A program made the position numbers and the translations under genes. The notes beneath the pieces are model-generated. The model was not told the origin of the DNA and did not search any database. It saw nothing but the letters and a program-made list of their open reading frames with translations. From Anaerolineae bacterium (lineage in GTDB: Bacteria > Chloroflexota > Anaerolineae > Promineifilales > Promineifilaceae), in NCBI GenBank assembly GCA_032260445.1, contig JAVVFG010000002.1, forward strand, positions 1 to 43,084: a DNA stretch of 43,084 bases, read 5' to 3'. Shown here piece by piece: positions 1 to 21,082 of this stretch. Position 1 is the first letter of the stretch. Each line of letters starts with the position of its first letter.

Positions 1-947
1 GCTTCGCCGCGGCCGAGGGCATTGAGGAGGCGGGCGAGATAGGCCATGCGCAGGGCGCCAGTCTCGCGGACGGCGCCGCCACGATGGGGGCTGAGGACGA
101 CGTTGTCGAGGGTGTGGAACGGGAAGCCGGCGGGCGGTGTGTTGGCGCGGGCGGCCTCGTCTTCGGGGTAGTTGTACCAGACGTCAAGTCCGGCGCCGGC
201 TAGATGGCCGCTCTGCAGCGCCACGAACAGGGCTTCCTGGTCGACGATGGAGCCGCGCCCCACGTTGACGAGGACGGCGCCGGGGGGCAAGCGGCCGAGC
301 GCGGCGCCGTCGATCAGACCTTCAGTCTCCTCAGTGAGCGGTAGAGTGATGATCAGCACGTGGGCGCGCGGCAGCAGCTCGTCCAGGCGGTCACCAGGGT
401 AGATGACGACGCCTATTTCATCGACGGTTGCCCCAGGGATGGAACGCCGCGTTGCCAGGACCTCCATGCCGAGGGCGCGGCAGGCACGGGCAACGCGGCG
501 CCCGATGGCGCCGTAACCGAGGATGAGTGCCGTCTTGCCGTCGAGCAACACGGAGGGATTGGGCTGGTAGCGCGGGCGCCAGTCGTGCTGGCGCAGGGCG
601 CGATCGAGGGGCACGATGAACTTGGCCGCCGCGAGCAGCAGCGCGAGCGTGAGTTCGGCTACCGGGGCAGCATTGTGGTGCAGGTTATGCACGCGTATCT
701 GCGGAAAGCCGCGCATGAGCTCCCGTGTCTCTGCAGGGATGCCTGCCCAGGGAATGATTAGCGTGTGCAGGTCAGCGCTGGCGGCGAGCTGCTCGCGCGT
801 GGGGCGGCCCGCGACAAGAACCTGGTAAGCGGCGGGCTCGGGCTGCTCGGGGCCGAGGAGCAGGTTGACGCCAGGATCGAGCTGCTGGCGCAGGAGCGCT
901 GCCTCGCTTTCTTGTGGCGGGTGAGGCAAGAAGACACGCAAGATCAT
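1..947 (-). CDS. D-isomer-specific 2-hydroxyacid dehydrogenase family protein. The C-terminus is cut by the window edge, and it is absent from the supplied ORF track because it has no in-window stop.
   Basis: Own minus-strand translation from the ATG at 947-945 gives MILRVFLPHPPQESEAALLRQQLDPGVNLLLG... It contains the NAD-binding motif GKTALILGYGAIGRRVARA (about 485-540) and the VNVGRGSIVD and SPHRGG motifs. The frame is open to position 1. The start overlaps the stop of the upstream hydratase gene as ATGA (944-947). Confidence 0.8.
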   Translation of the reverse strand, partial: MILRVFLPHPPQESEAALLRQQLDPGVNLLLGPEQPEPAAYQVLVAGRPTREQLAASADLHTLIIPWAGIPAETRELMRGFPQIRVHNLHHNAAPVAELTLALLLAAAKFIVPLDRALRQHDWRPRYQPNPSVLLDGKTALILGYGAIGRRVARACRALGMEVLATRRSIPGATVDEIGVVIYPGDRLDELLPRAHVLIITLPLTEETEGLIDGAALGRLPPGAVLVNVGRGSIVDQEALFVALQSGHLAGAGLDVWYNYPEDEAARANTPPAGFPFHTLDNVVLSPHRGGAVRETGALRMAYLARLLNALGRGE

Positions 948-1717
948 CTTCCCTGCCAGCTGGCGCGCCGCTTGTTAATGAACGCGTCCATACCTTCTTT
1001 CTGATCTTCGGTGCTGAAGAGCATGTAGAAGAGGCGGCGCTCGTGGGCGAGACCGGCCTGGAGCGACGTCTCAAAAGCTGCGTTGATCGCTTCTTTGGCC
1101 ATGCGCACGGCGACGGGGGCCTGAGCAGCGATTGGGGCGGCAAAGCGGACGGCTTCTTCGAGATAGCTCTCGACGGGCACGATCTTATTGGCGAGGCCGT
1201 GCTGGACGGCTTCCCCAGCGGTGAGGCGGCGATCAGCGAGAATGATCTCCATGGCGAGGGCTTTGCCGACGGCACGTGTCAGTCGCTGGGTGCCGCCGGC
1301 TCCTGGGATGACCCCCAGGTTGATCTCCGGCTGGCCAAACTGGGCGCTTTCGCTGGCGATGATCATATCGCAGGCCATGGCAAATTCGCAGCCGCCGCCG
1401 AGAGCGTAGCCGGAGACGGCAGCGACGAGGGGTTTGCCGAGCCGGCGCAGGCGATCCCAATAGTCGATGAACGGGTTGTTGAGCATGTCGACCGGCGTGG
1501 CGTGGGCCATCTCTTTGATATCCGCGCCAGCGGCGAAGGCTCGTTCGTTACCGGTGACGAGCAAGCAGCCAATCTCTGGGTCGGCGTCAAACCGCTCGAG
1601 CGCATCCAGGGTTTCGGCCATCATTTCCCGGTTCAGCGCGTTGAGGGCTTGCGGCCGGTTGAACTGGACAATGCCGACGCCCTGCTCAGAACGGACCAGA
1701 ATGTTTTCGTATTCCAT
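944..1717 (-). CDS. enoyl-CoA hydratase/isomerase (crotonase) family protein
   Basis: 257-aa ORF with crotonase hallmarks FAAGADIKEM, GYALGGGCEFAMACD and FGQPEINLGVIPGAGGTQRL. A GGAGG RBS lies 5 nt upstream of the ATG. Confidence 0.9.
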   Translation of the reverse strand: MEYENILVRSEQGVGIVQFNRPQALNALNREMMAETLDALERFDADPEIGCLLVTGNERAFAAGADIKEMAHATPVDMLNNPFIDYWDRLRRLGKPLVAAVSGYALGGGCEFAMACDMIIASESAQFGQPEINLGVIPGAGGTQRLTRAVGKALAMEIILADRRLTAGEAVQHGLANKIVPVESYLEEAVRFAAPIAAQAPVAVRMAKEAINAAFETSLQAGLAHERRLFYMLFSTEDQKEGMDAFINKRRASWQGR

Positions 1718-3284: not shown

Positions 3285-5381
3285 TTATTCGGGCTCGTAG
3301 GCGGCTTCGCCGCGCGGATCGCCGAGTAAGCAGCGGCGGAGCTGGGATGCATCGCCGCGGCGCAGGAACGTCGTCACCTGGTCGCCAACGCGCAGCCGAG
3401 TGTCGCCGTGGGGAATCAGCAGGTTCCCCTGGCGGCGAATGGCGACGATCACACAATCCTGGGGAAGCAGGGGGCTTAAGCCAACAAGCGACTTGCCGAC
3501 GGCCGGGCTACCGGCCGGGAGCTCGACTTCGAGGAACTCGGCCTGATCGCTGGCGGTGAGGCGAACGGAGGTGGGTGCGCCAGGATGGCTCGTACGGCGC
3601 GCCAGGGCGATGTTGTAGGCTTTGATGATGTCACGACGCCGGATAACGCCGACGACTCTTCCCGGATCCTCACGGGAGACGACGGGTAGCTTGTTGACAT
3701 CGCGTACGGCGAGGCGGGCCAGGGCATCGCCCATCGGTTCATCTTCGTAGGCAACCAGGAGCTGGGTCGTCGTGGCAATGTCACGCGCGACGCGGCCGTC
3801 GAGCAATCCCCCTTCGCCGATCGCGCGCTCATAGTCAGTGATGCTCACCACGCCCGCAAGATGGTGGTTCTTGTCGACCATGGGGAAACTGTGAGAATGG
3901 GTTCGTTCGAAGAAGCGGCCCAGCTCAGGAAGCGGCATGTCTTCTTCTACGACGTAGACATCGCGGGTCATCGCTTCGCGAACGAACAGCCCTTGCATGA
4001 TATCGACGTCGCGACCGCGCTGGAGGGTGATGCCCTTCAGACGTAGCTTGAGCGTGTAGATCGATTCGCGGAAGAGGTGTTCGGCCAGCAACGTGGAGAG
4101 AACCGTCGCCAACATCAGGGGGAGAATGAGCTGGTAGTCGTTGGACATTTCGAAGACGATGAGTACGGCGGTGATCGGGGCGCGTGCTGCCCCAGAGAAG
4201 ACCGCCGCCATGCCGACGATGGCGTAGGCGCCCGGGTTGACGGCGACGGACGGCCACCAGGCGTTGGCCAGGTTACCGATGATGCCGCCTAACATGGCGC
4301 CCACGAAGAGACTGGGGGCAAAGACGCCGCCGGAGTTGCCGCTGCCCAGGGTAAAAGTCGTGGCGATGATCTTCAGGAGGAGCATGGCGAGCATGAGCTG
4401 CAGAGACATGTCGAAGTCAAAGGCGATGGCGTTGCCGATGAAGGCCATGCCGGAGCCGAGGACTTCGCGGCCGGGCAAGAGCAGCCCAACGAGCGCGGTG
4501 AGAATCATGCCGAGGGCAGCCTTAAAGGAGGGCGGCACACGCCACTGGTCGAAGAGGCTCTCGGCGCGGTAGAGGACACGGATAAAGAGGACAGCGATCA
4601 GCGCGGCAAGAAGGCCGAGCGTGATGTAGACGGGCAGCTCGCCGAGGCTATTGAGGGGATAAGCAGGCACGGCGAAGGCGGGCTCATTGCCCAGGAAGGA
4701 GCGGCCGACGATCGCCGCAGAAACGGCGCTGATAACGACGGCGCCAAAGTAGCGGACGGTGAAACGGCCAAGGATGACCTCCAGGGCGAAGATGCTGCCG
4801 GCGATAGGGGCGTTGAAGGTGGCGGCAATACCGGCAGCGGCGCCGCAGGCGACCAGAGTGCGCACACGTTCGGCGGAGAAGTGGAGCAGCTGGCCGATGG
4901 TCGAGCCGAGGGCGGAGCCAACCTGGACAATGGGGCCTTCGCGCCCGGCGGAGCCACCGGCGCCGATGGTGAGCGAGGAGGCGAGGACTTTGAGGGCGGC
5001 GATGCGCGGGCGGATACGGCCGGCGCGTAGGGCGACGGCTTCCATGACCTCTGGTACGCCGTGCCCTTTGGCTTCGCGCGCCCAGTGGTCGACGATGAAG
5101 CCGACGAGGAGGCCGGCGAGGGCCATGACGGCAATGAGGCCGAGCGCAGTGCCCAGGAGGTCCTGCACGGAGCGGGCGATCGCGCCGATTTCGGCGAGGA
5201 GCCAGATGAAGGCAACGGCGCCGAGGCCAGTGCCAGTACCGGTGACCACAGCAGTCAGGACGAGGACGAGGGAGTCGGGGGGCTGGACACGGTCGAGATA
5301 CTGGCGCAATTTCTGGCTTTTGGCGGCGAGCCAAGGAGGTGACGGTAGCTCGGCGGCGGTAGGGACATTCGCCTCTTTCAC
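3285..5381 (-). CDS. ClC-family chloride channel / H+-Cl- antiporter with C-terminal CBS pair and TrkA-C (RCK_C)-like domain
   Basis: 698 aa with ClC selectivity motifs GSAGREGPIVQVGS and GSGNSGGVFAPSLF. It has a tandem CBS-like region and a C-terminal VAIRRQGNLLIPHGDTRLRVGDQV segment. GTG start with an AAGGTG RBS. Confidence 0.9.
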   Translation of the reverse strand: MKEANVPTAAELPSPPWLAAKSQKLRQYLDRVQPPDSLVLVLTAVVTGTGTGLGAVAFIWLLAEIGAIARSVQDLLGTALGLIAVMALAGLLVGFIVDHWAREAKGHGVPEVMEAVALRAGRIRPRIAALKVLASSLTIGAGGSAGREGPIVQVGSALGSTIGQLLHFSAERVRTLVACGAAAGIAATFNAPIAGSIFALEVILGRFTVRYFGAVVISAVSAAIVGRSFLGNEPAFAVPAYPLNSLGELPVYITLGLLAALIAVLFIRVLYRAESLFDQWRVPPSFKAALGMILTALVGLLLPGREVLGSGMAFIGNAIAFDFDMSLQLMLAMLLLKIIATTFTLGSGNSGGVFAPSLFVGAMLGGIIGNLANAWWPSVAVNPGAYAIVGMAAVFSGAARAPITAVLIVFEMSNDYQLILPLMLATVLSTLLAEHLFRESIYTLKLRLKGITLQRGRDVDIMQGLFVREAMTRDVYVVEEDMPLPELGRFFERTHSHSFPMVDKNHHLAGVVSITDYERAIGEGGLLDGRVARDIATTTQLLVAYEDEPMGDALARLAVRDVNKLPVVSREDPGRVVGVIRRRDIIKAYNIALARRTSHPGAPTSVRLTASDQAEFLEVELPAGSPAVGKSLVGLSPLLPQDCVIVAIRRQGNLLIPHGDTRLRVGDQVTTFLRRGDASQLRRCLLGDPRGEAAYEPE

Positions 5382-5393
5382 GTCTTTTTCACC

Positions 5394-7370
5394 TTATGGA
5401 AATTGTGGTTTGGGCAGCGGCAGGACGTCGCCGTTGCCGGGAATGGGTACGCGCGCGCCGGTATCAGGGTGATAGAGGCCGCTTTGCAGCGCGGCGATGG
5501 CGGAGGTGTCGACGGCAAGCTCGTGGCGCTGGAGGATGAGGTCGCCGGGCTGCCAGTAGGCGGCGGGGGCGCCAAGGTCGTCGCCGGCGGTGATGACCTG
5601 ACCCTGGTCGTCGAGGGCGTGGAGGAAGATGCGGCGCAGCTCGCCGGGGGGCTGCAGGACGCGCCAGTAGGTGATGACCTGGCAGGGCTGACCGCTGGCG
5701 GGCTGGCAGCTGGGACCATCGAACGAGTGGCCGAGGAAGAGGAGCTCATCGCCAAAGGGGACGGAGGCGGGGAAGCCGGGGGTGGGCTGCAGCTGGCGGC
5801 TGAGCTGGTACTGGGCAAAGCGGCCGTGAACGGTGCGCTGCACGCCCCACTCTGCCAGCTCGGCGGCGAGGACGGGATGCACCGGCAGGACCGCCGGCAG
5901 GAGCAGGCGGGCGGGCTGCTGCGGCGTGGCCTCGGCCGGTAGGATGACGGCGCGCAGCGGGTGGAAGTGGCGCAGGGTGAGATCTTCGCGCTGCAGGTAG
6001 AGAGCCATGGTGGGCGCGTCCATGGATTCGGGCGACCACCCACCGATGGCGACGGCGCCGGCAGAGTCAGCGCTGATAGTTGCGAGGGCGCGGGCGTCGA
6101 GGTAGTGGGCGGCGTCGCGCAGGGCGGTCTGCCAGGTGAATTCCACGTCGTCGGCGTCGCCGGGCCAGGTGATGAGGATGTCTCTGGCAGTGAACACGGC
6201 GGTGAAGAGAATGATGGCGAGGAAGACAGCTGAAATAAACCACACCCTAAGCGTTTCTGTGGATAACCGGCCGGTTTCTGTGGATAACTTGCCCCAACTG
6301 TGCATAACTATGGCCGGTAAGGTGGTGAGAACCGGCAAGATATTGATCATACGTATCGTGCTAGGCGCATCTATAGTCATTACACTAGGAATAAACGCCG
6401 TAAATATCCACAGGAGAAGGAAACCATAGCGGGCATCCTTCACGCGCCAGAAGCTGTAGAGCAGACATCCGTAAAAGAAGATCGCTAGCAGTGGATGGAA
6501 AACCGTGCGGAAGGGTACGCCCTGGCGCCAAAGCGGGTCACCACGGAGGCCAAAGCCGGCAAGAATATCCACAGTGTTATCCACAACCGGCCGGAAGTTG
6601 CCTTTGAACATATCGCGCATCGGCTCGTTGACTTCGTAGACGCGCACCTCGGCTTCGGGGTTGAGCTGGAGATAGGCGACCAAGGGCACCGCGACGACAG
6701 CGAACAGTAGCCAGAAGAAGAGGATGCCACGCCAGCGCCGGCGAAAGGCTTTCCAGTGCAACAGCAGCAGGTAGAGGGTGAACGCGGCGTAGAAGATGGG
6801 GACGGTGCGCGCAGCCATATAGGTGTAGAGGCTGAGCCCGGCGACGAGCCCGGCAAGTAGGAAGTCGCGGGTACTGCGGGCTGGTGGCGCATTTTCCCGA
6901 TGGCCCCAGGCGCGCCACCAGATGTAGGCGGAGGCACCAGAAAGCAGGGGCAGGCTGATGGCGCGCAGTGCCTGGCGGCTGTAGAAGACGGACCAGAAGA
7001 GCACGGCGAGCAGGGCAGCGGCGAGCAAGGCGACGTTACGGCCAAAGAGGCGGCGGTTGAGGGCGTAGGTCACGGAGATACCCAGCAGGCCGGCAAAGGC
7101 CGACGGCAACCGCAGGGCGAGGGCGTTATCGCCGATCAGGCCGGCGAAAATGGCCTGGACGTAGTGAAAGAGGGCTTCGTGACCGTAAGCGTAGGGGAAA
7201 TAGATGCTGTGCTCGCCGTTGAAGATGCGGCGGACGATGAGCCAGTTGGCCACCTCGTCGTGCGAAAGGCCGGGCGGGGAGAGCTCGAACAGGCCATAGA
7301 GGCGGAGGGCAGCCGCAAGCAAGAGGACGGGAACAAGCCAGGCAAGCGCGCGGCGTCGGGTTAGCTGCAT
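5394..7370 (-). CDS. GT-C fold glycosyltransferase, family 39 / ArnT-PMT_2-like, with extracytoplasmic C-terminal domain
   Basis: 658 aa. The N-terminus LRLYGLFELSPPGLSHDEVANW... is followed by more than 10 TM segments, as is typical of PMT_2/ArnT-like enzymes. The start ATG lies 1 nt after the stop of the upstream YfhO-flippase gene. Confidence 0.85.
   Translation of the reverse strand: MQLTRRRALAWLVPVLLLAAALRLYGLFELSPPGLSHDEVANWLIVRRIFNGEHSIYFPYAYGHEALFHYVQAIFAGLIGDNALALRLPSAFAGLLGISVTYALNRRLFGRNVALLAAALLAVLFWSVFYSRQALRAISLPLLSGASAYIWWRAWGHRENAPPARSTRDFLLAGLVAGLSLYTYMAARTVPIFYAAFTLYLLLLHWKAFRRRWRGILFFWLLFAVVAVPLVAYLQLNPEAEVRVYEVNEPMRDMFKGNFRPVVDNTVDILAGFGLRGDPLWRQGVPFRTVFHPLLAIFFYGCLLYSFWRVKDARYGFLLLWIFTAFIPSVMTIDAPSTIRMINILPVLTTLPAIVMHSWGKLSTETGRLSTETLRVWFISAVFLAIILFTAVFTARDILITWPGDADDVEFTWQTALRDAAHYLDARALATISADSAGAVAIGGWSPESMDAPTMALYLQREDLTLRHFHPLRAVILPAEATPQQPARLLLPAVLPVHPVLAAELAEWGVQRTVHGRFAQYQLSRQLQPTPGFPASVPFGDELLFLGHSFDGPSCQPASGQPCQVITYWRVLQPPGELRRIFLHALDDQGQVITAGDDLGAPAAYWQPGDLILQRHELAVDTSAIAALQSGLYHPDTGARVPIPGNGDVLPLPKPQFP
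6252..6293. repeat. 21-bp tandem duplication inside the GT39 CDS (18/21 identical)
   Basis: The units are cgtttctgtggataaccggcc (6252-6272) and ggtttctgtggataacttgcc (6273-6293). The protein reads ...KLSTETGRLSTETLR... Confidence 0.9.
6258..6585. promoter_or_regulatory. cluster of DnaA-box consensus 9-mers (TTATCCACA) within a low-GC patch; function unproven
   Basis: Perfect boxes lie at 6258-6266 (-), 6279-6287 (-) and 6577-6585 (+). 8/9 boxes (ATATCCACA) lie at 6404-6412 (+) and 6565-6573 (+). Confidence 0.5.
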
Positions 7371-7371
7371 G

Positions 7372-10300
7372 TCAGGTCAGGCGGAGGCGGGCGGCGACAG
7401 GGGCGGGCAAGAGGGTGCGGAGCACCATCCGCTCCTCTTCGCCGAGGGCGCCGAGCATCCACAGGGCGACGGGATAGACGGGCAGAGCAGCCAGCAGGCC
7501 GAGGACGGGCGAGAGCAGGGCGCCGGCAAAGAAGGCAGCAGCCATGAGCGAGGTAGCGAGCGCAGGGCGCCAGAGGAGCCGGAACCAGCGCACGCCGGGC
7601 ATGCGGCGCTGAAGATAGACGTTGAAGATAGCCAGCAAGACAACTTCAGAGAGGATGGTGGTCAAGGCGGCGGCACGGTAGCTGTAGAGCGGCAGCAGGA
7701 GGAGGTTGGCGACGAAATTGAAGGTGACGCCGGCAATAAAGGCGCGTACCTGGACGCGTTCGAGGCCAAGGGCAATCAGGGTGTAGTTGGTGACGCTGTT
7801 GATCCAGCCGATAGGGATCGACCAGATGACGATGCGCAGGGCGATGGCGCCGTGCGGCAGGAACTCGGCGCCGCCGAGAACGCCGATAAAGAAGGGCGCG
7901 AGGACGGTTGTCACCAGGGCGATGGGCAGGGAAATGAGGGCCATCAGCTTGATTGCCATGCGGAAGCTGCGGCGGGCATCGTCGAGGTTATCGTGGATCT
8001 GCCGGGAGATGACGGGGAAGAGGGCCATGGTAAAGAAGCTGGGGATGACGTTGATAGCCATGACCCATTTGTAGGCGCTGTTGTACCAGCCGACCGCCTC
8101 GTCGCCGTTGAAGCGCTGCATGAGCGGGACGTCGACGAAGAAGAAAATCTGGGCGAGCAGGTGGTTGATCATGAGCGGGGCGCTCTGGCTGAGCATCCGC
8201 CGCTGCAGGCCGAAGTCGAGGCGCCAGGGGCCGGTGAGGCGGACACGACGGCGGGTGGCGGCGACGAGAATGAAGAGAGTAATGACGTTGACGATAACGG
8301 AGACGGCAGCCATGCCGACGTAGCTATAGCCAAGCAGCAGCGCGCCGACACCAAAGGCTACCTTGAGAATGGTGGTGATCGTGGCGATGGCCGCGGGCGT
8401 CTCGGCGGTCTCGTAGGCGTAGAAGAGGCCGGAGAAGCTTTGCCCGGCGCCGCTGAAGAGCATGCCGGCAATGAGGAAGAGGATGGCGAGGACAGCATCG
8501 CGGCTGAGGGCGTTGGTGCCGCGGGTGGCAACCCAGAGATAAAGCAAGATAGGGAGCAGCGCTAGGGCACTGGTCGCCAGGCGGAGGGCGATGGTGTTGA
8601 TCAGGTAGCGGCTGCCTTCACGGCGATCGCGGGAGACTTCGCGGATGACCAGCGTGTTGAGGCCGAAGTTCGCCAGGATTTCGTACCACATGGCGATGGC
8701 GATGGCGGTGGCAAAGGCGCCGGCGTCGGCAGGGCCGAGGACTCGCAGGTAGAAGGCGGCGTAGAGGAAGTCGATCGCCTTGTTGAACAGGTTGAGAATG
8801 GTGGGAACGATGCTGTTCTTGGCGACGCTGCGGGTGTCTGTGAGTTCGGCCTCGGGGTTGTAGAAACGGCGCCAGCCCCAGACACCGACGGCAAAGAGCA
8901 GGATGACGCCGGCCATGGCGCTGGTGAGACCGCCAAGCTTGAAGCTCATCGGACTGTAGCGAAAACGGACGGACCAGTCGCCCGGCGGCAGGAGAACGCC
9001 GCGGAAGTTGCCGTTGACAGGATAGATGGTCAGTTCCTGCTCGTCCGCCCCGGGATCGTGCGCCGGCTGCAGGAAGGCTTTCCAGCCGGGGAAATAGCTG
9101 TCGTTGAGCACGAGCCAGGATGGTGTGGCGGCGGAGGCGGCGACGATAACCTCGACGTTGCCGTAGTCGGTGATCGTCGCAGGGATGGGCTGCGCGGCGA
9201 CGGGCGAGGATGGCGCGGGCGCGGGCTCGTCCCAGGCCGCTGCTTCGACAAGCACGTGTTGGCGCGGGTCAAGCCGGTTCAGCTCGGCGACGGGATCAGC
9301 GACCGGCGCGGTCGCCGTCTGCGGCAGCAGGTAGGCACGCGGCATAGCAGCGAGATTCTCGTAGACGCGAACGCCCTCGCCTTCCCAGACCAGCTTGTAT
9401 TTGGGGAGGTCGATGGTCGCCGTGGTGAGGACATACTTCGCGCCGAGGACGTCGAGCAGGGGGGAGTTGAGCGCCTGCCAGTCGCGAATGGGCTGGATGC
9501 GATTGAACAGGAGTTCAGACTGGGGTTCAACCGCTTCCATGAAGCGTACATAGCGGCGGGGAATGACCGAATCGTAGCCGCGCACGTCCTCGAGACCATA
9601 GAGCCAGGCAGCGTTGGCGTTGAGCGGCTTGTCGCCGTGCGGGGCGAAGGTAGTGAGGCGCCACTCGCCGGGCTGCTGCTGCAACCATTGGACAACCTCG
9701 GGCTCATAGTCGAGCAGGGCGGGGACAGCGGCGGTGTGGAAGCCGGCGTTGGCGACGAGGAGATCCACGCCGACGACAAGGGGAGCGAGCCAGGGCCAGA
9801 GCTGGCACCAGCGAAAGCGCGTGCAGCAGCTGGCGCGCAGGACGAGGCCGGTGGCGAGGAGCGCGGCTGCGAGGATGAGGAGGTTGCGGAACTGGTAGCT
9901 GTAGAAGGCACGCGTGTCGGGGAAGGCGTCCGGGGCGCGCTTGAGGCCGAGGAAGAGGCGCTCCACAAACGGTTCGAGCGCGCCGTAGCTGAAGCGGGAG
10001 AGGAGCAGGCCGAACAGGAGCAACAAGCCTCCCCAGAAGGCGACGCCGGCCAGTGTGGTGACCGCCGACGGGCGGCTCCAGAGGAAAACGGGTCGGAGCC
10101 AGCGAGCGTCGTGGAGCCGTGTGGCGCTGATGCGTGGCCCGCGCGGCACCGGCGCGCGCTGTCGCGCCAGGAAATCCATGCCATAGCCGGCAAGGGCGGC
10201 GACGGCGAGGGCAAGCGGAAATACCCAACGAAAGGGGGAGTGGAGCTGGTTGATACCGGGTAGGCCGTAGTAGAGGAGCGCATAGAGCGGCGTCCCAAAA

Positions 10301-11562
10301 ATGAAGGCGAGGGAAAAGAGAGAGAGAACGACGAAGAAGAGGATGGCGGAGCGCGAGCCGCGGGTGCGCGTAGGCCAGGAGCGAAGGCCGAGCAGGGCCA
10401 GAAAGAGCGGCAGGATGCCGAGGTAGATGCCGCCTTCGACGTAGTTCTTGATGCCCCAGTCGCTGCTGTAGGCGCCCCAGGGGTTAACCTCGCCGTAGTA
10501 GTTAGTGTTGAAGGCGACTTCTTCGCCGGAGAAGACGTCTGGATAGCTATGGTGGGCGGGATTGCCAAAGAAGTTGGGCAGAAAAAGGGTCAAGGCGCGG
10601 CGCGGCGGAAAGGCCCAGCCGCGCACCTCGGCGAGGGAGGCAGAACCTTCGCGAAAGTTAGCCTGGCCAACTTCGTAGAACGGAATGAACTGGATGGCGC
10701 CGATCATCATACCGAGCACGACGAGGGCGAGGAGCCAGAAGGCGGGCTTGGCCATGGCGCGCAGGGTGCCGGTGCGCTGTTCGGCCGGGGGCAGGTCCTG
10801 GCGCTGCTGCCAGACCCGGGAGAGGAGACGCCAGACAGCGTAGGCAGCCATGACGAGGAGAGTATAGTAGGTGATCTCGATGTGGCCGGCAAGCACCTGG
10901 GCGCCGAGGGCGAGGGCGCCGAGGACGACCCAGGGGAGAGTCTTGCCGGCGCCGCGCAGGGTGCTGCTGGCGCGGATGACCATTTCGACGAGCGCCAGCA
11001 GGAGCGGCAGCCAGGCGGCGGCGCCGATAATCATGGGGAAGACAGCGGCGCTAACGAGCATGAAGCCGGAGCCCTGGAAGACAAGGGCGGCGACGGCGGC
11101 GCTGGCACGGCGCATGCGCAGCACGCGGGCGAAGAGGTACATGGCGATGCCGGCGAGCCACAATTGGCTGACGGTGTACCAGCCATAGGCAGCCGGCAAG
11201 GGCAGAAGGAGGAAGAAGATGCTGAAGGGGTAGTAGGCGGCGTTCTGGCCCGTGGCGAGGAAGGGAGAGCCGGCAAAGAGGTGCGGACTCCACAGGGGCA
11301 GCTCGCCCTGGCTCAGACTGTCACGGATGAACTGCTTCCAGACGTAGTTCTCGAGGATGAGGTCGCTGAGGAGGCTGTTGTGCGGGGTGGCAACGCCGAG
11401 CTCGGCGGCGGCGCTGGCCCAGGGGGCCCATTGGAAGAGGTTGTCGGCGGGGATCATGGTGCGCCCGCCGAGGGTGACATCGGCAAATAGGAGCAGCGGC
11501 AAGGCGAGCAGCCCGAGTACGATGAGGATGTCGGCCCCGTAGAGGCGGATGAGGCGTTTCAT
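7372..11562 (-). CDS. fusion protein: N-terminal YfhO-family GT-C membrane glycosyltransferase (about aa 1-900) plus C-terminal MOP/Wzx-type polysaccharide flippase (last about 486 aa, nt about 7375-8832)
   Basis: A single uninterrupted 1396-aa ORF. The N-terminal part has PADNLFQWAPW...LWSPHLFAGSPFLATGQNAAYYPF and YFPGWKAF...VNGNFRGVLLPPGDWSVRFRYSP (YfhO-like). The C-terminal part runs RSVAKNSIVPTILNLFNKAIDFLYAAFYLRVLG...APLMINHLL...WYNSAYKW... with 12-14 TM segments (Polysacc_synt-like). Confidence 0.85.
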   Translation of the reverse strand: MKRLIRLYGADILIVLGLLALPLLLFADVTLGGRTMIPADNLFQWAPWASAAAELGVATPHNSLLSDLILENYVWKQFIRDSLSQGELPLWSPHLFAGSPFLATGQNAAYYPFSIFFLLLPLPAAYGWYTVSQLWLAGIAMYLFARVLRMRRASAAVAALVFQGSGFMLVSAAVFPMIIGAAAWLPLLLALVEMVIRASSTLRGAGKTLPWVVLGALALGAQVLAGHIEITYYTLLVMAAYAVWRLLSRVWQQRQDLPPAEQRTGTLRAMAKPAFWLLALVVLGMMIGAIQFIPFYEVGQANFREGSASLAEVRGWAFPPRRALTLFLPNFFGNPAHHSYPDVFSGEEVAFNTNYYGEVNPWGAYSSDWGIKNYVEGGIYLGILPLFLALLGLRSWPTRTRGSRSAILFFVVLSLFSLAFIFGTPLYALLYYGLPGINQLHSPFRWVFPLALAVAALAGYGMDFLARQRAPVPRGPRISATRLHDARWLRPVFLWSRPSAVTTLAGVAFWGGLLLLFGLLLSRFSYGALEPFVERLFLGLKRAPDAFPDTRAFYSYQFRNLLILAAALLATGLVLRASCCTRFRWCQLWPWLAPLVVGVDLLVANAGFHTAAVPALLDYEPEVVQWLQQQPGEWRLTTFAPHGDKPLNANAAWLYGLEDVRGYDSVIPRRYVRFMEAVEPQSELLFNRIQPIRDWQALNSPLLDVLGAKYVLTTATIDLPKYKLVWEGEGVRVYENLAAMPRAYLLPQTATAPVADPVAELNRLDPRQHVLVEAAAWDEPAPAPSSPVAAQPIPATITDYGNVEVIVAASAATPSWLVLNDSYFPGWKAFLQPAHDPGADEQELTIYPVNGNFRGVLLPPGDWSVRFRYSPMSFKLGGLTSAMAGVILLFAVGVWGWRRFYNPEAELTDTRSVAKNSIVPTILNLFNKAIDFLYAAFYLRVLGPADAGAFATAIAIAMWYEILANFGLNTLVIREVSRDRREGSRYLINTIALRLATSALALLPILLYLWVATRGTNALSRDAVLAILFLIAGMLFSGAGQSFSGLFYAYETAETPAAIATITTILKVAFGVGALLLGYSYVGMAAVSVIVNVITLFILVAATRRRVRLTGPWRLDFGLQRRMLSQSAPLMINHLLAQIFFFVDVPLMQRFNGDEAVGWYNSAYKWVMAINVIPSFFTMALFPVISRQIHDNLDDARRSFRMAIKLMALISLPIALVTTVLAPFFIGVLGGAEFLPHGAIALRIVIWSIPIGWINSVTNYTLIALGLERVQVRAFIAGVTFNFVANLLLLPLYSYRAAALTTILSEVVLLAIFNVYLQRRMPGVRWFRLLWRPALATSLMAAAFFAGALLSPVLGLLAALPVYPVALWMLGALGEEERMVLRTLLPAPVAARLRLT

Positions 11563-11701: not shown

Positions 11702-12610
11702 CTAATCACCAAAATGGACGCCGAGTGCGGTACCAAGGGCAGCAAGCGAGGAAACGGGTTGACCGGCGGCGGTGTGGCAGGCGAGCCGCAGGGAGAGACG
11801 CGCTGCCGGCGGCAACGATTCGACGCGGGCCTGATCGGCCGCAGAGTAGAAGTAGGGAATGGCCGGCTCCACGCGCTGGCGGCAACGCTCCAGGAGGCGG
11901 GGGCAGTGGGCGGCGCTGGTAATGAGCAGGAAGGCTGCGTTGCCGGCGTGGGCGATAAAGGGCGCTTCGCCAGTCTCCAGTTCGTCGAGCAACCGAACCA
12001 GGATGAGGCCGACGGCGCGGGTGACATCATCGGCAGCGACAAAGCCGTATTGGTCGCGAAAGTGATCGAGCCCGCGCAGCTCTACGAGCACGACGCCCCA
12101 ATCGGGGGTGGCGAGCATTGCCTCGAGCCGGGCAAGGAGCAGAGGGCCCTCGGGAAGGCCGGTGAGGGCGTTGTGAGCGGGGCGCAGCTCGCCGCGGCGC
12201 AGGGCATTGCCGATGCGGAGGCCCAGTTCGTGGATATCGAACGGTTTGTTGATGTAGTCAACGGCACCCAGCTCTAACCCGGCGAGGCGGTCTTCGCGCT
12301 CGTTGCGCTCGGTGAGGAAGATGACGGGGAGATGGTTGGTGCGGCGGTCGCGGCGCAGGCGGCGGTACACTTCGTAGCCGTCGATGTCGGGGAGGTGGAT
12401 GTCGAGCACGACAACGTCGGGCATTGCCTCGTGAATAAGGCCGACAGCCTCTTCGCCCCAGGCGCTGCGGGTGACGGCAAAGCCCTGTTCGCCGAAGTAG
12501 GTGCAGAGCATTTCTGCCACCTCGTCGTCGTCTTCGACAAAAAAGATCTGCTTGTCGCGGCTATCAGTCACGGTATATAGCTCCGTCGTCCAGCGATTAC
12601 CTGGCACCAA
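11702..12610 (-). CDS. response regulator: REC receiver domain plus degenerate GGDEF domain
   Basis: REC motifs are FFVEDDDEV, VVVLDIHLPDIDGYEV and DYINKPF. The C-terminal half has the GGDEF-fold pattern (LTGLPEG..., LDHFRDQYGF), but the signature position reads HAGNAAF instead of GGDEF. The start is TTG (or GTG at 12607), preceded by a GGAG RBS. Confidence 0.85.
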   Translation of the reverse strand: MVPGNRWTTELYTVTDSRDKQIFFVEDDDEVAEMLCTYFGEQGFAVTRSAWGEEAVGLIHEAMPDVVVLDIHLPDIDGYEVYRRLRRDRRTNHLPVIFLTERNEREDRLAGLELGAVDYINKPFDIHELGLRIGNALRRGELRPAHNALTGLPEGPLLLARLEAMLATPDWGVVLVELRGLDHFRDQYGFVAADDVTRAVGLILVRLLDELETGEAPFIAHAGNAAFLLITSAAHCPRLLERCRQRVEPAIPYFYSAADQARVESLPPAARLSLRLACHTAAGQPVSSLAALGTALGVHFGD

Positions 12611-17439: not shown

Positions 17440-17473
17440 TTTCGCACGAACTGAAATTCCTATGCCTAGCGGC

Positions 17474-17658
17474 TGTCCGGGAGAGGGTGTGGCTGGTGAA
17501 GCGACGAGCGCACACCGCCGAAGGGGCAAGCCTGGTGTGCTGGCTGCAGCGCCGGGTGAAACTCTCAGGCAAAAGGACCGGGCAGGCGGGCACTTCTGGA
17601 AAGCCTGGCAGCATGAGGCCGGTGGAGACCGGCGCCACTCTCAGGTAAGTGACAGAGG
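17474..17658 (+). promoter_or_regulatory. glycine riboswitch: canonical first aptamer (about 17474-17584) followed by a truncated/degenerate second aptamer (about 17592-17658)
   Basis: Aptamer 1 has P1 UGUCCGG/CCGGGCA, GAGAG, ACCGCCGAAGGGGCAA and CUCUCAGGCAAAAGGAC. The second unit has CUUCUG-GAAAG ... CUCUCAGGUAAGUGAC-AGAGG but lacks the GAAGGGGCAA/P3 segment. The element lies directly upstream of gcvH. Confidence 0.85.

Positions 17659-18148: not shown

Positions 18149-21082
<2,934 letters not shown>

Follow-up and report, generated by a model that had tools for sequence, protein, structure and literature searches.

Why does a gene for a membrane glycosyltransferase carry a dense group of binding motifs for the initiator protein DnaA? 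The question is raised by a stretch of 43,084 nucleotides from an Anaerolineae bacterium (assembly GCA_032260445.1, contig JAVVFG010000002.1), which we analysed at its full length and call the window. Three perfect copies of the DnaA-box 9-mer TTATCCACA and three copies that match it at eight of nine positions lie together at 6258-6585, all of them within a single open reading frame (ORF) for a GT39 glycosyltransferase of 658 amino acids. An earlier note on this DNA had reported five of these boxes and had offered three readings, namely a site within coding DNA for the titration of DnaA or for regulation by it, a cryptic origin of replication, or a horizontally derived mosaic segment. To judge from its sequence and from a comparison with 83 orthologous loci, the locus is a selected cluster of consensus DnaA boxes that occurs once per genome and at a fixed position, with gains that are specific to individual lineages.

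We distinguish two groups of boxes (see the table below). Boxes A, B and C follow each other head to tail on the coding strand, with start-to-start distances of 20 bp from A to B and 21 bp from B to C. As these distances correspond to about two helical turns each, the three boxes should lie on the same face of the DNA. Boxes B and C share one reading frame, while box A is read in another one, with the codon phase xTT ATG CAC Axx. The remaining boxes are inverted relative to the gene: a single copy, and a double box in which ATATCCACA (6565-6573) and a perfect TTATCCACA (6577-6585) are separated by the 3-bp gap gtg. On the gene strand the double box reads GTT GTG GAT AAC nnT GTG GAT ATy. The positions that the earlier note had given for the three perfect boxes and for both copies of ATATCCACA were correct, and so were the 21-bp distance within the minus-strand pair and the 3-bp distance between the copy at 6565 and its perfect neighbour. 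Box A, the sixth box, had been overlooked although it belongs to the conserved core, and the five others had been treated as equivalent, whereas the minus-strand trio is the ancient core and the plus-strand boxes are younger and restricted to a subclade.

To see how far the boxes are conserved, we compared 80 orthologous loci from metagenome-assembled genomes (MAGs), one genome per species, with a GC content of 44-66%; on each contig, 10 kb were read on either side of the gene. The loci are labelled Promineifilaceae, Ardenticatenaceae, Promineifilum, Ca. Trichofilum and Ca. Leptovillus (Chloroflexota; Ardenticatenia; Promineifilales in the NCBI taxonomy). Four further loci, including L082-L084, were found by an exact protein-sequence look-up. 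The codon alignment comprises 81 genes, and codons were ranked over those 142 columns in which a residue of four-fold or higher degeneracy is conserved. Note that all the comparative sequences are MAG contigs and that they are related by descent, so the counts given below are not independent of each other. L010 and L023, two loci with the orthologue and its boxes, are filed under Zixiibacteriota and Patescibacteria, respectively, but in all probability both are contigs of Chloroflexota that were misbinned.

At least one perfect TTATCCACA is found at the homologous place in 77 of the 80 loci. Usually it is the pair 21 bp apart, and some loci have a third perfect copy 20 bp upstream of this pair. 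In the codon alignment, boxes are present in 80 of the 81 orthologues. The GT39 genes contain 156 perfect boxes where 0.7 are expected, against 10 where 5.8 are expected in 1.18 Mb of flanking DNA. Altogether, the array is the strongest box cluster in the roughly 1.35 Mb of family DNA that were sampled.

The conservation reaches down to the choice of codons. TTA is used for Leu362 in 71 of 74 sequences and for Leu369 in 73 of 75, TCC for Ser363 in 80 of 81 and for Ser370 in all 81, and ACA for Thr364 in 73 of 78 and for Thr371 in 71 of 72. These six codons of boxes B and C occupy ranks 1-6 among the 142 columns, with a top-codon fraction of 0.94-1.00; in the remaining columns its median is 0.49, and it does not exceed 0.85. 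The neighbouring residues A335, P336, R340 and L345, which are invariant in the protein, use three to six codons. Synonymous codon identity has its maximum (0.75-0.89) at amino acids 351-380; elsewhere it is 0.3-0.45, a background that implies that silent sites are otherwise near saturation.

The pattern of tolerated substitutions is that of a DnaA box. Across the 81 genes, the nucleotides of box A are T78 T80 A78 T81 N(T28/G23/C16/A14) C76 A81 C79 A72, so that position 5 carries 0.05 bit of information compared to 1.4-2.0 bits at the other eight positions. Being free at position 5 only, box A fits the relaxed DnaA consensus TTWTNCACA. This consensus is matched in 64 (A), 71 (B) and 68 (C) of the 81 genes, and the strict consensus in 65 genes by box B and in 64 by box C. 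The mean match is 7.9 (A), 8.75 (B, with a background of 2.3) and 8.77 (C) of 9 positions. Overall, the known tolerance of DnaA boxes (any nucleotide at position 5, A or T at position 3, the rest fixed) is what we find. The commonest variant of box B is TTTTCCACA, which is also the second commonest variant of box C after TTATCCCCA. In 17 of the 81 genes there is a further box with at least seven of nine matches one helical turn before box C. Between and beside the 9-mers, the 81-gene alignment contains no conservation beyond what the protein requires.

Some observations concern variants of the core. The form TTATCCCCA of box C, which changes Thr to Pro, is common to eight loci with 47-58% GC (L010, L020, L021, L023, L026, L044, L067 and L071), and six of the eight share an insertion of three amino acids before box A. 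Some of them, for example L044, have the box-like sequence GTTTCCACA one turn upstream, which may be a case of site turnover within the cluster. In the window itself, boxes B and C are part of a 21-bp tandem duplication at 6253-6293 (GTTTCTGTGGATAACCGGCC and GTTTCTGTGGATAACTTGCC, 90% identical) that encodes KLSTETG/RLSTETL; in most relatives the likeness is limited to the 9-mer. An antisense ORF at 6136-6429 on the plus strand, which would read VSVDN...VSVDN, was set aside, as nothing between the 9-mers is conserved.

Could the protein, and not the DNA, be the object of selection? Boxes A-C encode a short hydrophilic loop between the hydrophobic segments at amino acids 338-356 and about 375-402, and an alignment of 18 orthologues with identities down to 49% shows that the loop varies, apart from an invariant LST...LST. 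One can thus imagine that the LST...LST loop is functional and that the rare codons TTA and ACA cause pausing during membrane insertion: Leu-Ser-Thr hardly varies, if at all, in the protein alignment, and TTA is rare in a gene in which the GC content at third codon positions (GC3) is about 0.8. However, the departures that we observe retain the nucleotides at the expense of the residue, with TTA replaced by TTT (Leu to Phe) and ACA by CCA (Thr to Pro). The 9-mer also turns up in another frame (box A), on the opposite strand, where it contributes to VVDN and VDI, and in non-coding DNA, and the choice of codons stays constant from 44% to 66% GC. Finally, there is a natural control for selection at the DNA level: L046, a paralogue on the same contig (CAWAPO010000001.1) as the box-bearing L038, retains Leu-Ser-Thr but writes it as CTT-TCG-ACG, and its boxes are lost. 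We therefore regard a constraint on the protein or its translation as highly improbable. Purifying selection acts on the nucleotides of the boxes in 80 of the 81 orthologues, and the invariant Leu-Ser-Thr...Leu-Ser-Thr of the loop is a by-product of it.

The low GC content around the boxes had suggested another origin. The per-line GC counts of the earlier note (32, 28, 26 and 31) are exact, and the low-GC patch with an open GT39 frame is real: GC is 52% in the patch and 63.4% in the window, which puts the patch about 12 points lower. Over amino acids 251-385, GC3 is reduced from about 0.9 to 0.43-0.7, the GC content at first codon positions is lower too, and the frame of 658 amino acids stays open. 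The GC and GC3 drops would be expected if the patch were a horizontally acquired mosaic, or if the 9-mers were chance products of AT-rich coding DNA. Yet in a mononucleotide model the whole window should contain 0.11 perfect boxes, close to the earlier estimate of about 0.1 (Poisson P(>=3) = 2e-4), and even with the composition of the patch only 0.002 are expected there (P ~2e-9). Matches with at most one mismatch number nine in the window, as opposed to 3.3 +/- 1.8 in shuffled sequences, and six of the nine fall inside 330 bp; the others, all 8/9 matches, start at 20983, 25159 and 37995, of which the earlier note had seen just the last. Chance is further contradicted by the presence of boxes in all but one of the orthologues. 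As for a mosaic, the nearest neighbours of the patch (L001, L002, L003 and others) are the same as for the rest of the gene, and its identity to them is higher and not anomalous. A horizontal origin was rejected on the nucleotide, amino-acid and synonymous identity of the patch compared to the rest of the gene, over all loci. We give practically no credence to either variant of this explanation. The patch is accounted for by the AT-rich boxes, the constrained spacer and a conserved protein segment that is rich in Ile, Phe, Met and Thr.

The additional boxes have a narrower distribution than the trio. The window belongs to a subclade together with L001-L003, L005-L007, L011, L015, L078 and L082-L084. 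The double box is identical in nucleotide sequence in ten subclade members of the 81-gene alignment, down to about 52% amino acid identity, and also in the closer relatives L082-L084; the wider family in the same alignment lacks it and reads PVLENxLKI there. The single inverted box occurs in the window, L001, L002, L083 and L084, and not in L082 or L003, and most of the family has Leu at amino acid 322. In the AT-rich spacer, GC has its minimum at 6368-6407 (32.5% over 40 bp), conserved AT-ending codons are used (for example ACT ATA GAT and ATA CGT ATG ATC AAT ATC), and synonymous codon identity is 0.53-0.60 compared to about 0.44 elsewhere. A GC3 dip at amino acids 300-350 is found only in the subclade of the window; elsewhere GC3 dips only at the boxes. 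From this distribution, the plus-strand boxes and the AT-rich spacer are younger additions that are specific to the subclade.

Other lineages have gained boxes outside the gene. In L005, L007 (12020-12100) and L015, arrays of reverse-oriented boxes with gaps of 1-2 bp stand just past the GT39 stop codon, as in the sequence TGTGGGTAAccTGTGGATAActTGTGGATAG of L005; the window has none. As these arrays lie in the spacer between the convergent genes GT39 and greA, no promoter is expected there. The occurrence of boxes in both orientations and in non-coding DNA indicates that the ligand would be a protein that binds double-stranded DNA, and not an RNA signal, and it speaks against the control of a promoter.

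Which protein would that be? The motif makes DnaA the putative ligand, and another DNA-binding protein, with a coincidental likeness of its sites to DnaA boxes, has to be considered. Direct repeats that are spaced by multiples of 10-11 bp are typical of regulators of the OmpR/PhoB type, and a response-regulator gene is located nearby, at 11702-12610, so a response regulator could bind the direct repeats with their 21-bp phase. Against this we find that the DnaA consensus is matched at all nine positions and that the sole free position is the canonical N. Moreover, the pair in the subclade, with its 3-bp gap, is laid out as described for double boxes of DnaA, and the arrays of L005, L007 and L015 with their 1-2-bp gaps resemble DnaA oligomerisation arrays. 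Another ligand than DnaA is therefore improbable in our view.

If the ligand is DnaA, the first thing to ask is whether the gene harbours an origin of replication, chromosomal or secondary, in which opposed groups of boxes flank an AT-rich unwinding region. There is some likeness to oriC: in the subclade, a conserved AT-rich stretch is surrounded by six boxes that point in two directions and all lie inside 330 bp, and no stronger box cluster was seen in the family DNA. On the other hand, the GC skew is +0.11 to +0.23 in every kb on the left of the site and positive over 36 kb on the right, whatever the strand of the genes, which places the site inside one replichore. The skew has the same sign on both sides in 29 of 43 fully flanked loci, and the 14 loci in which it differs split into 7 and 7. 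A tblastn search for dnaA was negative in the window and in 81 loci, a scan for the DnaA-trio was negative as well, and the AT-rich spacer and the inverted boxes are missing in most of the family. In short, we see here neither a switch of the GC skew, nor linkage to dnaA or dnaN, nor a DnaA-trio or unwinding element that is shared by the family. The cryptic origin of the earlier note is thus not supported, and we hold an origin inside the gene to be very unlikely. Relative to the skew, the gene is found on either strand in different genomes, so that its orientation to the replication fork is not fixed. In L061 the gene is located near the beginning of a 3.76-Mb record, at a distance of 9-11 kb; since the first 20.8 kb of this record contain no dnaA, its position is uninformative on oriC. 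Throughout the window the GC skew stays positive irrespective of gene strand and averages about +0.15, which is unusually strong; in most relatives it is much weaker.

We propose instead that the GT39 reading frame of Promineifilales-type Chloroflexota contains an ancient, positionally fixed, non-origin cluster of DnaA boxes that acts as a DnaA-binding locus comparable to datA or to the DnaA-box clusters (DBCs) of Bacillus subtilis, and we consider this the probable, though by no means certain, interpretation of the sequences. For the titration or regulatory site in coding DNA of the earlier note, the sequence-level support is strong, with the conservation in the orthologues, the degeneracy at the fifth position and the added arrays. 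In such a locus, DnaA would occupy the three strong boxes on one face of the helix, and ATP-DnaA may fill the weaker sequence between them, so that a short oligomer would form, head to tail. Present once in each genome, the locus would thereby be a sink on the chromosome for the initiator, or modulate it, and would help to time the initiation of replication. It is a matter of speculation that transcription and translation through the site could modulate its occupancy.

How does such a locus compare with the systems that are known? Clusters outside oriC restrain initiation in Escherichia coli and B. subtilis (PMC5742627; PMC3245932), and an oriC-proximal box cluster of Streptomyces coelicolor is described as doing the same (PMC5742627). 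The essential boxes of datA, the DDAH locus of E. coli, share one direction (PMC5742627), which points to head-to-tail oligomers of DnaA. The GT39 array resembles datA in that it would offer high-affinity boxes in one direction, outside oriC, within a few hundred base pairs and once per chromosome. It differs in that datA is non-coding and needs an IHF site between its boxes, whereas the GT39 array lies inside an ORF, shapes the protein and has no conserved IHF-like site. B. subtilis has six DBCs, which are intergenic; several of them control adjacent promoters, and in other Bacillus they are found upstream of different genes (PMC3245932). Like the GT39 array, with its 3-6 boxes in 50-330 bp, the DBCs and the S. 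coelicolor cluster consist of consensus boxes away from the origin, and those are known to bind DnaA stably and to restrain initiation jointly (PMC3245932). The lineage-specific turnover in the number of boxes is typical of clusters of this type, too. In contrast to a DBC, the GT39 array is intragenic, has no promoter-like site beside it, and occupies, to the codon, the same position in at least 80 species.

Two further systems share single features with the array. The functional core of E. coli DARS1 and DARS2 also consists of exactly three DnaA boxes (PMC6868365). There, boxes I and II stand head to head, 5 bp apart, and the release of ADP depends on this orientation (PMC6868365); the GT39 trio is strictly head to tail with gaps of 11-12 bp, and a DARS is excluded because of the head-to-head orientation. 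In vivo, the DnaA of E. coli binds pairs of boxes with a 2-3-bp gap (Stringer, Fitzgerald & Wade 2024, PMC11317965). The double box of the subclade, in which a weaker box is followed after 3 bp by a consensus box, has the same layout as the sites at polA, purH and datA (PMC11317965). Most of the E. coli sites are found upstream of the genes that they regulate, whereas the subclade pair is located 0.8 kb inside an ORF, and in one subclade only.

A role of DnaA in transcription is the strongest competitor to a sink. DnaA is a transcription factor with intragenic sites such as the one in guaB, and the array, once bound by DnaA, could be a roadblock or attenuator for RNA polymerase within GT39, by which envelope glycosylation or polysaccharide export is coupled to the replication cycle. 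This would require the same boxes, and the evidence from conservation applies to it equally. Furthermore, the array invariably lies on the coding strand; it is reached 1.06 kb into GT39, which follows the 1396-aa flippase-like gene after 1 nt. Several findings fit it badly: no promoter-like or terminator-like sites were found at 5300-7500, nothing but the 9-mers is conserved, and the downstream gene varies, being a ClC channel gene in the window and in L083 and the convergent greA elsewhere. The added arrays of some lineages are located in a convergent spacer without promoters. In E. coli, the isolated perfect box of guaB is not detectably bound in vivo (PMC11317965). Control of transcription by DnaA is possible, and we would not bet on it. 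We favour the sink over the control of a promoter because of the arrays in the promoterless convergent spacer and because the downstream gene is not conserved.

Still, several points weigh against the locus being comparable to datA or a DBC. DnaA is predicted as the ligand from the motif, and the DNA that was fetched comprises no dnaA locus. The regulatory clusters known so far are non-coding. The trio has gaps of 11-12 bp, where E. coli DnaA prefers gaps of 2-3 bp in vivo. In the window, a single sequence at 6336-6348 on the minus strand matches the IHF-like consensus WATCAANNNNTTR at 12 of 13 positions, and it is not conserved in L084, L002 and L003. The dosage effects of datA and of the DBCs depend on the distance to oriC. 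Finally, the boxes may have a role in the transcription of the host operon.

The host gene itself is well defined. Both of its Pfam domains score above the gathering cut-off: PF13231 with 51.4 bits (cut-off 26.1; 1.8e-13) and PF02366 with 27.0 bits (cut-off 22.7; 4e-6). We found 616 homologues, of which the closest named ones are from Promineifilaceae or Anaerolineae. The neighbours of the locus are ordinary housekeeping genes, and the order flippase fusion, GT39, (ClC), greA is conserved. On a wider scale, the syntenic order is ruvC, yebC, GH1, V4R-like, response regulator, the 1396-aa YfhO/flippase fusion and GT39, followed by ClC in some genomes and then by the convergent greA, an Rce1-like gene and ECH. 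The stop codon of the fusion is separated from the start of GT39 by 1 nt, an arrangement that is conserved among relatives. As the ClC gene is present in the window and L083 and absent from L081, L082 and L084, it is a lineage-specific insertion into an otherwise conserved synteny. Farther away, a glycine riboswitch precedes the glycine-cleavage genes, which is the expected arrangement; it is the sole match above the gathering threshold in an Rfam scan of the window, and no Rfam family matches at the box region. The 3' end of a predicted tRNA-Lys(CTT) overlaps the end of the enoyl-CoA hydratase ORF (944-1717, minus strand), and its length is unusual, so the call may be spurious.

Table 1. Boxes, genes and RNA features of the window that are referred to in the text. 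Box names and coordinates apply to the window; strands are given relative to its forward strand.
Feature	Position	Strand	Encoded residues or basis
Core box A, TTATNCACA; 8/9 match TTATGCACA in the window	6299-6307	-	V355-M356-H357-S358
Core box B, perfect TTATCCACA	6279-6287	-	TTA-TCC-ACA = L362-S363-T364
Core box C, perfect TTATCCACA	6258-6266	-	TTA-TCC-ACA = L369-S370-T371
Inverted double DnaA box, aATATCCACAgtgTTATCCACAa as a whole	6565-6585	+	V262-I269
Inverted 8/9 box ATATCCACA	6404-6412	+	cTG TGG ATA Ttt on the gene strand, L320-W321-I322
AT-rich spacer, centre of the low-GC patch	6306-6416	none	
GT39/PMT_2 (ArnT-like) membrane glycosyltransferase, 658 aa	5394-7370	-	ORF list and Pfam
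1396-aa fusion of a YfhO-like N-terminal part and a Polysacc_synt/MatE flippase-like C-terminal part	7372-11562	-	
ClC chloride channel with CBS and TrkA_C domains, between GT39 and greA	3285-5381	-	
Response-regulator gene	11702-12610		
Glycine riboswitch aptamer RF00504, upstream of glycine-cleavage genes (gcvP 18149-21082)	17468-17590	+	60 bits
tRNA-Lys(CTT), 87 nt	878-964	+	ARAGORN

How widely is the array distributed? We used its footprint in the protein, LST-x4-LST (with F allowed for L and P for T), to look beyond the orthologues. Among the 34 top representatives clustered at 50% identity, 20 have the footprint; the remaining 14 include some fragments in which the loop is missing. In the listed set of 116 more distant homologues, the footprint occurs once, in P0250, a fragment of 306 amino acids with 46% identity. 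The footprint is thus confined to the orthologue group, and the array characterises this single group within one order-level lineage. In the literature that we searched, the coverage of which is limited, we found no precedent for an intragenic cluster of DnaA boxes that constrains codons, or for any DnaA-box cluster in Chloroflexota.

What would this mean for the biology of these bacteria? Clusters that tune initiation away from the origin are known experimentally from a few model bacteria, where they occupy non-coding DNA at poorly conserved positions. The cluster in GT39, in contrast, keeps its place to the codon in at least 80 species of a largely uncultured phylum that has been little studied, and it is strong enough to dictate six amino acids of a membrane protein. 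It would be a clean natural example of how a code for protein binding, written in the DNA, overrides the protein code in bacteria, and for Chloroflexota it provides the first concrete candidate locus of regulation by DnaA. For annotation it suggests some caution, as the LST-x4-LST of this glycosyltransferase family is probably no protein feature at all. More tentatively, and with considerable doubt on our side, one may suppose that the locus has been a dual-coded replication-control element since the common ancestor of this order-level lineage, and that RNA polymerase and coupled ribosomes periodically strip DnaA from it as they pass. If this were true, the pool of free initiator, and hence the timing of initiation, would be tied to the growth-dependent expression of an operon for envelope biogenesis.

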